7,887 nt of DNA from a virus (taxonomy: Duplodnaviria; Heunggongvirae; Uroviricota; Caudoviricetes): positions 1-7,887 of the IMG/VR virus record IMGVR_UViG_2695420565_000011; one strand, given 5' to 3'. The notes below the pieces were generated by a model that was given only the letters and a program-made list of their open reading frames with translations, made no database searches and was not told where the DNA came from. The translations under genes were made by a program, and so were the position numbers. Positions 93 through 3,719 of the stretch are shown here, one piece after another. Positions within the stretch are counted from its first letter, which is position 1. Every line of letters starts with the position of its first letter.

Positions 93-108
93 GGGAAAAT
101 AAGTGTAG

Positions 109-182
109 CGCGTTGTACTGGAGTCGAACCAGTGACCGATTGCTTAGAAGGCAATTGCTCTGTCCTGCTGAGCTAACAACGC
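109..182 (-). tRNA. argO: tRNA-Arg, anticodon UCU (reads AGA/AGG)
   Basis: Manual cloverleaf on the minus strand: acceptor GCGTTGT/ACAACGC (7/7), D stem GCTC/GAGC, anticodon stem ATTGC/GCAAT with loop CT-TCT-AA, T stem ACTGG/CCAGT with loop TTCGACT. The 3' CCA is not encoded (G-CUA). Symbol is by position in the ileZ-argN-argO order recalled for Stx-type lambdoid phages. Confidence 0.8.
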
Positions 183-195
183 AGAATACCGATAA

Positions 196-271
196 TGGAC
201 CACCACCGGGGACTCGAACCTCGCACACTCAACTTAAAGGGTTGACGCTCTTTCCTGATGGCTAGTGGCGG
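196..271 (-). tRNA. Atypical tRNA-like gene (76 nt with CCA); canonical positions give anticodon UUU with C33; possibly degenerate
   Basis: Acceptor CCGCCAC/GTGGTGG pairs 7/7 (one G.U); anticodon stem TCAAC/GTTGA is perfect with loop CCTTTAA; T loop is TTCGAGT. But the D stem has only 2 Watson-Crick pairs, the T stem has one A.C mismatch, and position 33 is C rather than U. It sits where argN would be in a Stx-phage layout, but the sequence does not give a CCU or UCU anticodon. Confidence 0.5.
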
Positions 272-272
272 T

Positions 273-348
273 TGGTGGCCCTTGCTGGATTTGAACCAGC
301 GACCTGGCGATTATGAGTCGCTCGCTCTCACCACTGAGCTAAAGGGCC
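273..348 (-). tRNA. ileZ: tRNA with anticodon CAU, most likely tRNA-Ile2 (AUA-reading after lysidine modification) rather than elongator Met
   Basis: Cloverleaf: acceptor GGCCCTT/AAGGGCC (7/7), D arm TAGCTCAGTGGTGAGAGC, anticodon loop CT-CAT-AA, T arm GCTGG-TTCAAAT-CCAGC, encoded ACCA 3' end. Overall sequence resembles E. coli ileX more than metT (from memory). Confidence 0.8.
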
Positions 349-3001: not shown

Positions 3002-3030
3002 GGAAAAAACAAAACCCGCCGAAGCGGGTT
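3002..3030 (-). terminator. Intrinsic terminator of the hok transcript
   Basis: Minus-strand RNA: AACCCGC-UUCG-GCGGGUU (7-bp stem, UUCG tetraloop) followed by UUGUUUUUU. About 70 nt downstream of the hok stop codon. Confidence 0.65.
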
Positions 3031-3069
3031 AAGTGCGGGTGCGTTGAGGATGCCTGATTCATCAGAGGT

Positions 3070-3091
3070 GGCGAGGGATTTCTCCCTCGCC
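3070..3091 (-). other. Stable hairpin in the hok 3' UTR (9-bp perfect stem, GAAA loop on the RNA)
   Basis: GGCGAGGGA / TCCCTCGCC inverted repeat with a 4-nt loop, 7 nt after the hok stop. No U-tract, so it is not a terminator; likely an mRNA folding or stability element. Confidence 0.5.
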
Positions 3092-3098
3092 GGGTCTC

Positions 3099-3254
3099 TT
3101 ACTCCTCAGGTTCGTAAGCTGTGAAGACAGCGACCTCCGTCTGGCCGGTTCGGATTCGTACCTCGCAGAGGTCTTTCCTCGTTACCAGTGCCGTCACTAT
3201 GACGGTGATACAGATGACGATCAGGGCGATTAACATCGCCTTTTGCTGCTTCAT
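3099..3254 (-). CDS. hokD: Hok/Gef-family type I toxin (HokD/RelF-like), 51 aa
   Basis: Translation MKQQKAMLIALIVICITVIVTALVTRKDLCEVRIRTGQTEVAVFTAYEPEE: one transmembrane helix plus the conserved Cys-containing periplasmic tail, near-identical to K-12 RelF/HokD as I recall it. AAGGAG sits 9 nt upstream of the ATG at 3254. The 19-codon in-frame extension in the track ORF (to 3311) is rejected. Confidence 0.85.
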   Translation of the reverse strand: MKQQKAMLIALIVICITVIVTALVTRKDLCEVRIRTGQTEVAVFTAYEPEE

Positions 3255-3375
3255 AGCCTGCTTCTCCTTGCCTTTCGGCGCGTAAGAGGCTAACCTACAT
3301 ATGTCTAGCATGAAATTGGCCTCAGATTAATGTTAGGCGTCTTGCAGGACGCGTAATGTTAACTGGGGCTTTTCT

Positions 3376-3411
3376 CTGTCTGCCTTACGGTGGCATGCCC
3401 GAGGCAGACAG
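3376..3411 (-). promoter_or_regulatory. GC-rich hairpin at the predicted 5' end of the hok mRNA leader
   Basis: 9-bp perfect stem CTGTCTGCC / GGCAGACAG with an 18-nt loop that contains the palindrome GGCATGCC. No U-tract on either strand. Confidence 0.45.
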
Positions 3412-3429
3412 CCTCAAGCACCCGCAGCA

Positions 3430-3457
3430 ATTCTACTTAACTCTCGCTTTACCGCAA
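3430..3457 (-). promoter_or_regulatory. Candidate hok promoter
   Basis: Minus strand: -35 TTGCGG (plus 3452-3457), 16-bp spacer, -10 TAGAAT (plus 3430-3435). The predicted start is about 10 nt before the 5' hairpin, giving an mRNA of roughly 420 nt, similar to plasmid hok mRNAs. Weak -35; low confidence. Confidence 0.3.
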
Positions 3458-3470
3458 ACCGTTTTTACCC

Positions 3471-3490
3471 GATATGGGAATTCCCATATC
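3471..3490. repeat. Perfect 20-bp palindrome GATATGGGAATTCCCATATC (candidate dimeric-regulator operator)
   Basis: Exact reverse-complement symmetry read from the sequence. Located between the small peptide ORF stop (3500) and the candidate hok promoter. No flanking U/T tract, so not a convincing terminator. Confidence 0.6.
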
Positions 3491-3499
3491 GTAATGAAT

Positions 3500-3604
3500 T
3501 CAGTTCCCTAGTCGATCCATCAAAAACACAACCAGGCAGTAAACGCCCACAACAGCAATAACAGCCAGAGCACCTTCCATTGCCAGTGAAATATCATCCG
3601 ACAT
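3500..3604 (-). CDS. Small membrane peptide ORF, 34 aa (MSDDISLAMEGALAVIAVVGVYCLVVFLMDRLGN), below the ORF-track size cutoff
   Basis: ATG at 3604 is preceded by AAAGGAGGGAAT, a near-consensus Shine-Dalgarno. Acidic N-terminus, one hydrophobic helix, short polar tail. An AT-rich promoter-like stretch lies upstream. Confidence 0.4.
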   Translation of the reverse strand: MSDDISLAMEGALAVIAVVGVYCLVVFLMDRLGN

Positions 3605-3719
3605 ATTCCCTCCTTTGGTGTGAATCCCGGCGAACGTTTTTACCCCCACCGACAAATAACATATACTAAAAAATCAATAGCTATAGCAACGCCTGTAATT
3701 GCAAAGGCTTCAGGCCAGA

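Follow-up and report, generated by a model that had tools for sequence, protein, structure and literature searches.

The window, by which we mean the whole 7,887-nt stretch of DNA analyzed here, carries the cII-like/O/P/nin/Q stretch of a lambdoid prophage, read on the minus strand; Q is followed by three tRNA genes. Over its whole length the window is matched best by a non-Stx prophage region of O157:H7 (95% coverage, 97.8% identity), and no single complete E. coli genome holds a full-coverage copy of the whole window. Among the prophage genes lies a small hok gene, and, as in the Qin prophage of K-12, the gene downstream of it is homologous to YdfU/DUF968 (78% identical). We are confident that the interval 3005–3458 around this gene is a complete hok/mok/sok type I toxin–antitoxin cassette of the HokD/HokW/HokC clade, a moron lying within the nin region of the prophage, and its regulatory mechanism can be assigned by homology with high confidence. 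The parts of the cassette are listed below, those on the minus strand in the order in which the predicted mRNA would run.

3430..3458, minus strand: candidate hok promoter, −35 TTTGCG (3458..3453), 17-nt spacer, −10 TAGAAT (3435..3430), putative +1 G at 3423
3005..3423, minus strand: predicted full-length hok (mok-hok) mRNA of about 416–419 nt, from the 5' end GGGUGCUUGAGG to the U-run of the terminator
3412..3423, minus strand: predicted tac (translational activator), GGGUGCUUGAGG
3365..3373, minus strand: predicted ucb (anti-SD) box, AAAAGCCCC
3286..3323, minus strand: predicted Sok-target hairpin (mok SD/dcb stem), GAGGC ... GCCUC around the mok AUG
3099..3311, minus strand: mok frame from the ORF list, 70 codons, SD GAGG at 3323..3320, AUG at 3311..3309
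3254..3099, minus strand: hok coding sequence, 51 aa plus stop, SD AAGGAG at 3269..3264
3070..3091, minus strand: 3' UTR hairpin of 9 bp, GGCGAGGGA-GAAA-UCCCUCGCC, present in both the full-length and the truncated folds
3037..3049, minus strand: predicted fbi (fold-back inhibitory) element, CCUCAACGCACCC, pairing with tac in the MFE structure
3005..3030, minus strand: intrinsic terminator from the terminator scan, AACCCGCUUCGGCGGGUU plus U-run, 7-bp stem and UUCG loop at 3030..3013, then UUUUGUUUUU
3268..3296, plus strand: candidate Sok promoter, −35 TTGCCT (3268–3273), 17-nt spacer, −10 TAACCT (3291–3296)
3303..3379, plus strand: Sok antisense RNA, predicted 77 nt, ends mapped from the RefSeq ncRNA sokC (K-12 16952..17010)

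The conservation of these parts was followed in 140 loci from IMG/VR and GTDB genomes, which reduce to 87 non-redundant full-length copies; the structure alignment comprises 43 diverse sequences. The 87 copies span Escherichia, Shigella, Kluyvera, Citrobacter, Pantoea, Erwinia, and others, with all elements conserved. In most relatives homology runs from about 20–45 nt upstream of 3423 to 3005–3011, and the flanks of 104 copies form 31 sequence clusters upstream and 16 downstream, combined in many ways, which is typical moron behavior. The cassette is also common. Of 5,426 complete E. coli genomes, 4,738 have a match to a 571-nt segment (at a median of two places per genome and a maximum of 11), and identity reaches 99% or more in 356 records, among them O103:H2 12009, O45:H2, and other STEC, where PGAP labels just "hokD". 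Phage records name it MokW, gef, host killer protein, or HokD. A 2025–26 preprint has cataloged 44,248 Hok homologs and finds them enriched in prophages (10.1101/2025.08.07.668861).

The toxin, its leader, and the antisense gene

The hok product, MKQQKAMLIALIVICITVIVTALVTRKDLCEVRIRTGQTEVAVFTAYEPEE, matches HOK_GEF (Pfam PF01848) over profile positions 1–42 of 42 at 83.2 bits (cutoff 22) and is identical to K-12 HokD at 50/51 residues, to HokW at 46/51, and to HokC at 42/51. Its matches to the NCBIfam Hok models lie under the curated cutoffs (48 bits versus 73 and 40 versus 89); we regard the Pfam and PHROG matches as decisive for family membership and leave the NCBIfam ones aside. In identical copies PGAP labels the gene "type I toxin-antitoxin system toxin HokD". 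The PADLOC protein models, which catalog anti-phage defense systems, return nothing for hok and its neighbors at E <= 0.01, and that library may hold no Hok model. A tblastn search of the window with the K-12 proteins detected neither RelB nor RelE (best E = 1.0 and 2.1), and the relBEF-type hokD arrangement, in which hok directly follows relB–relE without leader, mok, or sok, is not what the window contains. The preliminary description of this locus, made from the sequence alone, had called the toxin essentially K-12 RelF/HokD with no relB or relE upstream, and both halves of that statement stand.

The same description had given hok its own promoter, a roughly 170-nt leader, a 3' hairpin, and a tetraloop terminator, with an mRNA of about 420 nt, and each of these parts could be located. 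The promoter-like TTTGCG-17-TAGAAT was missed by a strict consensus promoter scan because its −35 is weak. Its TAGAAT aligns with the TATAAT of K-12 hokC and closes all 12 of the commonest promoter variants listed among the 87 relatives, and the sequence suggests that the promoter is active. With position 1 of Rfam RF01794 taken as the 5' end and the terminator as the 3' end, the mRNA would measure about 416 nt and begin with a leader of 169 nt (3423..3255, minus strand). The terminator is kept in most relatives, and the sequence diverges right after it. In the 43-sequence alignment the helix of the 3' UTR hairpin is 97.5% paired, with compensatory changes at three of its nine pairs; GC changes to AU at two pairs, in 15 and 17 sequences. 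A match to isrK on the hok 3' UTR (27.7 bits versus a gathering score of 50) was set aside as sub-threshold noise, as were isrK/OrzO-P matches at 454–527.

Upstream of hok, the mok frame runs in frame with it to a common stop codon. It matches PHROG 251, "MokW-like host killing", at 113 bits and is identical to MokC at 51/70 positions and to its counterpart ORF in Stx2 phage I at 62/70. The start, GAGG-N8-ATG, is present in 86/87 non-redundant relatives, and ATA replaces the start codon in one of the 87 copies. The preliminary description had reported no mok with a start codon, a claim that the GAGG and the AUG at 3311 overturn. Its narrower wording, that no separately framed mok exists, is literally true, but an in-frame mok is normal in this clade: K-12 mokC (16751..16960) and hokC (16751..16903) are likewise in frame and end at the same stop codon. 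The mok of plasmid R1 overlaps hok in another frame. Among the relatives mok is in frame with hok in 74/87 and out of frame in 12/87, the out-of-frame copies measuring 19 to 68 codons and occurring in Kluyvera, some Escherichia, Pantoea-like, and other genomes. By analogy, we propose that translation of hok is coupled to that of mok. The established view is that the translation of mok matters and not the Mok product (PMC9841398), and a conserved mok start combined with a free frame fits this view.

On the opposite strand, the hexamers and spacing of the Sok promoter are the same as in hokW-sokW of Sp5 and the Stx2 phages, with one substitution in the spacer, and the site aligns with the K-12 sokC promoter region. 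TAACCT is present in 68/87 relatives and TTGCCT in 70/87. In sokW, the mutagenic primer YO-421 changed TAACCT to GAGCCG and antitoxin activity was abolished (PMC8621323). The preliminary description had seen no convincing sok promoter, and a consensus promoter scan likewise returned no sigma-70 site on the plus strand within the leader; both passed over TTGCCT-17-TAACCT because it has just 7/12 consensus matches. We call the promoter by homology to the mapped sokC and sokW promoters, the thresholds of the scan being too strict for it. The predicted Sok RNA, whose ends at 3303 and 3379 are placed by homology, begins with a free 5' tail whose sequence complements the mok AUG and SD, continues into a long hairpin, and ends in a U-rich stretch. 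It folds at −33.9 kcal/mol (z = −5.35) and falls within 3251–3405, the window equivalent of the fragment that supplies sokW in trans. The sequence therefore points to a Sok gene that lies antisense in cis, has a promoter of its own, and is complementary to the region of mok translation initiation.

A covariance-model search, which the preliminary description had itself suggested, brought out a clear sok/mok homolog. Rfam RF01794 (hok/sok, "sok antitoxin") matches the minus strand at 3423..3249 with 114.3 bits (gathering score 59, E = 3.7e-26), spanning the full model (1–157 of 157) from the GGGUGCUUGAGG 5' end to a few bases inside hok. The model is in the sense of the hok mRNA, so that the match identifies a leader containing sok on its other strand and not a Sok transcript as such. 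The idea that the toxin is controlled by an unrecognized antisense RNA or by a different mechanism is not supported, as mok, the Sok promoter, the Sok RNA, tac, ucb, dcb, and fbi all align with hokC/mokC/sokC and hokW/sokW.

Predicted RNA switch and its conservation

The mRNA of plasmid R1 is modeled in three states: a nascent chain with a metastable 5' hairpin; a closed full-length mRNA, in which tac is paired with fbi and ucb masks the mok SD; and an open, 3'-truncated mRNA with tac and ucb joined in a stem, plus a mok SD/dcb hairpin that is recognized by Sok (PMC9841398). The MFE folds of the window reproduce all three as predicted structures. In the nascent first 30 nt, tac is predicted to pair with the next 11 nt in an 11-bp hairpin that sequesters it (−18.8 kcal/mol, z = −5.0). 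The full-length mRNA (419 nt) has an MFE of −176.1 kcal/mol (z = −7.63), and no shuffle folds as well. Here 3423..3412 pairs with 3049..3037 over 12 bp (tac/fbi), while AGCCCC of ucb pairs with GAGGC of the mok SD. Without its last 47 nt the RNA folds at −147.0 kcal/mol (z = −5.79), now with GGG-UGCU of tac paired to AGCCCC of ucb and with GAGGC...GCCUC surrounding the mok AUG. The Sok-target hairpin that arises in this truncated fold has a predicted energy of −11.5 kcal/mol on its own and is the third hairpin of the RF01794 consensus; its five outer pairs are kept in 42–43 of 43 sequences.

The sequences that take part in these exchanges hardly vary. The tac is identical in 86/87 relatives (as GGGTGCTTGAGG) and the ucb box in 80/87; the exact form of fbi, CCTCAACGCACCC, is found in 61/87, most variants being C-to-T changes that keep a wobble pair, and fbi is still present in the truncated K-12 hokD copy. 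In the structure alignment, whose 43 sequences are related to one another, the tac–fbi helix is 99.0% paired (11 wobble and 5 unpaired cells of 516) and the tac–ucb helix 99.7%. The closed structure is 91.2% paired overall versus 36–44% when partners are slid by 1–3 columns, paired-cell percentages that are inflated relative to the slid controls since the tested structure derives from the window's own MFE. Neither tac/fbi nor tac/ucb displays covariation among the 43 sequences: their sides are near-invariant, and the evidence there consists of conservation and wobble-compatible change only. Pairs changed on both sides number 37 in all, versus 24.9 ± 2.6 in shuffles (0/500 shuffles reach 37), and real compensatory changes are found in the 5' hairpin, the Sok-terminator hairpin, the coding-region hairpin, and the 3' UTR hairpin. 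As predictions, then, the nascent, full-length, and trimmed states are supported by both sequence and predicted structure and are conserved across relatives.

Proposed mechanism, alternatives, and possible role in the prophage

Taken together with the known systems, these elements suggest the following course of events. The weak hok promoter would give rise to a stable mRNA of about 416 nt, in which, during synthesis, the 5' tac would be locked in a metastable hairpin. At full length, tac would be paired with fbi and ucb would cover the mok Shine-Dalgarno, allowing neither translation nor binding of Sok. Slow trimming from the 3' end would then strip off fbi, upon which tac would move to ucb and the mok start would refold into the Sok-target hairpin. 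As long as the 77-nt Sok is supplied from its promoter on the opposite strand (TTGCCT-17-TAACCT), it would pair over the mok SD and AUG, so that translation of mok, and hence of the coupled hok, would be blocked and the duplex degraded. Once the supply of Sok ends, be it that the element is lost, that transcription is shut off, or that the prophage is induced, ribosomes would start at mok, reading would pass in frame from mok to hok, and the membrane toxin would be made. The toxicity of the window allele, the ends and processing of the cassette's transcripts, and the action of Sok on its mRNA are to be expected by analogy with R1 hok/sok, K-12 hokC/sokC, and Sp5 hokW/sokW.

Three other readings of the locus deserve to be weighed against a complete, regulated cassette. 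That hokD stands here without Sok and Mok, under an unrecognized antisense RNA or a mechanism not based on antisense at all, was suggested by the empty plus strand in the consensus scan of the leader, by the absence of an out-of-frame mok, and by the fact that PGAP marks just a hokD CDS in identical copies. We give this reading hardly any credence, considering that the covariance model matches at 114 bits, that the Sok hexamers are those of the mutationally validated sokW promoter, that the sokC annotation maps to 3303–3379, and that a conserved in-frame mok with SD and AUG is present, like K-12 mokC. A different matter is whether the intact cassette is a silent relic, too weakly transcribed or too poorly processed to kill, which hitch-hikes in prophages. 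The chromosomal hokA, hokB, and hokC loci gave neither post-segregational killing nor a rifampicin response, and post-segregational killing failed for the chromosomal hok loci of K-12, E. coli C, and ECOR24 (10.1101/2025.08.07.668861); an intact sequence is therefore no guarantee of activity. The weak hok −35 and the lack of a PADLOC model match point in the same direction. Nonetheless, every regulatory element of the window cassette is intact and visibly constrained across genera, and truncated or IS-disrupted copies, among which it does not belong, are easily told apart. In addition, hokW-sokW, 91% identical, is an active system with effects on lysis and on the yield of phage (PMC8621323), and 42/45 diverse Hok peptides were toxic in a study whose HokD control is among the previously characterized toxic Hoks (10.1101/2025.08.07.668861). 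We consider a silent relic unlikely.

Finally, hok might be expressed mainly by read-through of the early-right operon (pR, O, P, nin to Q), in which case it would behave as an induction-only gene. Every flanking gene, starting with the cII-like one (annotated "toxin YdaT family protein") and ending with Q, points the same way as hok, and among the relatives a crude ORF-based count puts hok in the orientation of its long neighboring ORFs in roughly three quarters of the distinct contexts (41/54 unique contexts upstream and 39/51 downstream). Moreover, HokW protein was seen only after RecA-dependent induction (PMC8621323). This reading sits poorly with the point at which homology begins across at least 31 upstream contexts, just upstream of the −35/−10, and with the invariant start GGGUGC; the documented switch also needs tac at or near a free 5' end, and hokW mRNA exists before induction (PMC8621323). 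As the principal mode of expression we judge read-through quite unlikely, but the two modes are not mutually exclusive and read-through can coexist with transcription from the cassette's own promoter.

We thus keep to the complete, probably Sok-regulated cassette, and ask what it may do for its prophage. By analogy with hokW-sokW, its most likely role, though a less certain matter than its identity, is to help lysis and phage release after induction. There, mitomycin C treatment makes Sok vanish and HokW build up in a RecA-dependent manner, and deletion of the locus halves phage release (PMC8621323). Stabilization of the prophage and exclusion of other phages are possible roles as well. The preliminary remark that hok modules of prophages have been linked to phage exclusion was imprecise: exclusion of T4 has been reported for hok/sok of plasmid R1 and not for a prophage copy, as cited in PMC8621323, and the prophage-borne hokW-sokW promotes phage release.

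A speculative extension, to which we allow a modest chance, is that transcriptional interference wires the cassette to induction. The N-antiterminated early operon runs in the direction of hok and meets the Sok promoter head-on, so that read-through after induction would oppose the Sok promoter; it might thus switch Sok off and at the same time supply hok RNA. If true, interference would explain the RecA-dependent disappearance of sokW RNA, and it would time the production of Hok, or of an in-frame Mok-Hok isoform of 70 aa, to let it help lysis in an accessory, holin-like way.

The value of this analysis is mainly corrective. Cassettes of this kind are already known, the closest relatives have been characterized experimentally, and near-identical sequences are present in hundreds of public genomes; the locus is a further allele of a cassette present in most E. 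coli genomes and otherwise holds no biological novelty. How induction removes Sok, and how the cassette benefits prophages, is already under study with hokW-sokW. Annotation pipelines, on the other hand, label such loci "hokD" and leave out mok and sok, a label that invites the wrong comparison with the truncated K-12 relBE-hokD and makes a textbook module look orphaned. By eye, too, mok and sok are easily overlooked: Sok promoters match the consensus poorly, and in this clade mok shares the reading frame of hok.

Comparison with known hok systems

The closest known system is hokW-sokW of Sakai prophage 5 and the Stx2 phages (Takada et al. 2021, PMC8621323), which is likewise prophage-borne, has the same architecture, and shares about 91% nucleotide identity over the mRNA. 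All of its published primers and probes fit Stx2 converting phage I (AP004402) exactly, save the mutagenic sokW-promoter primer. The tac, ucb, fbi, hok SD, and both Sok hexamers (−35 and −10) are identical to those of the window, the in-frame mok has 70 codons as well (62/70 identical), and the toxins agree at 46/51 residues. The window toxin ends in the HokD-type FTAYEPEE where HokW has VDYESEK, the 5' recognition tail of Sok differs at 6/30 positions, and the terminators differ. Moreover, hokW adjoins an EaA-like gene, whereas the window hok lies in the nin region. Experimentally, hokW-sokW has been shown to be a toxin–antitoxin system of type I: toxicity and antitoxin activity of Sok were demonstrated, the dependence on RNase III was partial, and 3' processing was left open (PMC8621323).

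The hok/mok/sok system of plasmid R1 (parB) shares with the window its set of elements, the three-state RNA switch, and membership in the same Rfam and Pfam families. It is plasmid-borne and serves in post-segregational killing, whereas the window cassette is prophage-borne. R1 Hok and HokW are just 44% identical (PMC8621323). For R1, 3' exonucleolytic activation, decay of the Sok/mRNA duplex by RNase III, and toxicity of Hok have all been shown (PMC9841398).

The chromosomal hokC/mokC/sokC (gef) of K-12, which is not prophage-borne, is homologous to the window over promoter, leader, and coding sequence as far as the stop codon (about 75% of nucleotides), with a toxin identical at 42/51 residues and, as in the window, a mokC in frame with hokC and sharing its stop codon. 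It differs in that IS186 cuts the locus after the 3' UTR hairpin, leaving hokC without the fbi and terminator that the window has, and in that the sokC hairpin is about 18 nt shorter than that of the window Sok. The mokC/sokC double-stranded RNA is cleaved by RNase III in vivo (PMC7373196).

The K-12 Qin hokD (relF, third gene of relBEF) has the most similar toxin (50/51) and 97% identity over the segment from SD and CDS through the 3' hairpin and fbi to the terminator. It has no hok promoter, tac, ucb, mok start, or Sok promoter and gene, and relE–relB are there instead; homology between K-12 and the window breaks just upstream of the hok SD, at the 3' end of relE. Copies of this type, namely K-12 Qin plus a small number of loci in E. 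coli, Shigella, and E. albertii, can be aligned with the window only from about 3268 onward. The reverse course, in which relBE would have been deleted from the window locus, was considered and rejected, as the leader absent from K-12 hokD is homologous to that of hokC and hokW. For that reason K-12 hokD is the derived form, and the window represents the complete, ancestral-type cassette, of which the relBE-hokD copy of K-12 is a truncated derivative.

Variation within the hok/mok/sok family

Among the 87 non-redundant full-length relatives of the hok cassette, the mok AUG is conserved, and the frame that it opens coincides with that of hok in 74 copies and differs from it in 12 (19 to 68 codons; L097-L099, L115, L118, L129 and others of the fetched hok loci). 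The start site is thus retained while the family alternates between an R1-like overlapping layout and a hokC-like in-frame layout.

The predicted 5' recognition tail of the antisense RNA Sok (3303-3332, plus strand) varies as well. It differs at 6 of 30 positions from that of sokW, taken from the aligned locus L144 (1777-1806), and at least two major alleles of the region occur among the relatives: 45 copies carry CCAATTTC and 15 carry CTCAATCC. The hok segment has a median of 2 and a maximum of 11 matching places per genome (counted in 4,738 of 5,426 complete E. coli genomes). With multiple cassettes per genome, such tail differences could lessen cross-talk between co-resident cassettes.

In the toxin itself, codon 47 encodes tyrosine (Tyr47, UAC, 3114-3116, minus strand) and lies within GCUUACGAA, in a UACG context. 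According to a preprint (10.1101/2025.08.07.668861), A-to-I editing by TadA of the hokC, hokD, and hokE mRNAs turns this tyrosine into the second cysteine. The site is kept in the hok gene of the window.

The search of genome contigs also returned five near-identical cassettes on short contigs or contigs of metagenome-assembled genomes (L088, L092, L120, L132, and L137), labeled as Veillonella, Xanthomonas, Acinetobacter, 'Scatousia', and Haemophilus. These are most likely contaminating or mis-binned E. coli prophage DNA, and the labels probably do not name true hosts.

tRNA genes and sub-threshold RNA matches

Downstream of Q, ARAGORN finds three phage tRNA genes on the minus strand (108-348):

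108-182, minus strand: tRNA-Arg (tct), also matched by the Rfam tRNA model
196-271, minus strand: tRNA 'Lys-ttt', the middle gene
273-348, minus strand: Met/Ile-type tRNA with a CAT anticodon, also matched by the Rfam tRNA model

The Rfam model matched the outer two only and gave no match to the middle gene. In the O157:H7 TW14359 prophage the equivalent position holds a tRNA-Arg, from which the middle gene is set apart by indels and numerous substitutions; this gene may be degenerate, or its anticodon may have changed.

Several further Rfam matches, all on the minus strand, stay below their gathering scores (50 for isrK, 60 for OrzO-P) and are treated as noise. At 3009-3090, a region shared with the 3' UTR and terminator of hok, isrK scores 27.7 bits. 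At 454-527, isrK scores 19.4 bits and OrzO-P 27.4 bits; this second region lies directly downstream of the Q gene, the site of pR' and its short leader transcript in lambdoid phages.

DNA upstream of the cassette

Two features lie just upstream of the hok cassette:

3470-3491: perfect 22-bp palindrome CGATATGGGAATTCCCATATCG, immediately beyond the cassette's upstream edge
3500-3604, minus strand: 34-aa hydrophobic ORF MSDDISLAMEGALAVIAVVGVYCLVVFLMDRLGN with a strong AAGGAGG Shine-Dalgarno sequence

The palindrome, of which 15 of the fetched loci carry a copy, could bind a protein or form a hairpin at which the upstream transcript ends. The ORF is annotated by PGAP as a hypothetical protein (WP_001278450.1) and has no match in Pfam, NCBIfam, PHROG, or PADLOC. 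Opposite it, the promoter scan places two promoter-like sites (3580-3607 and 3639-3667). A small membrane peptide opposite antisense promoters loosely resembles the layout of a type I toxin.
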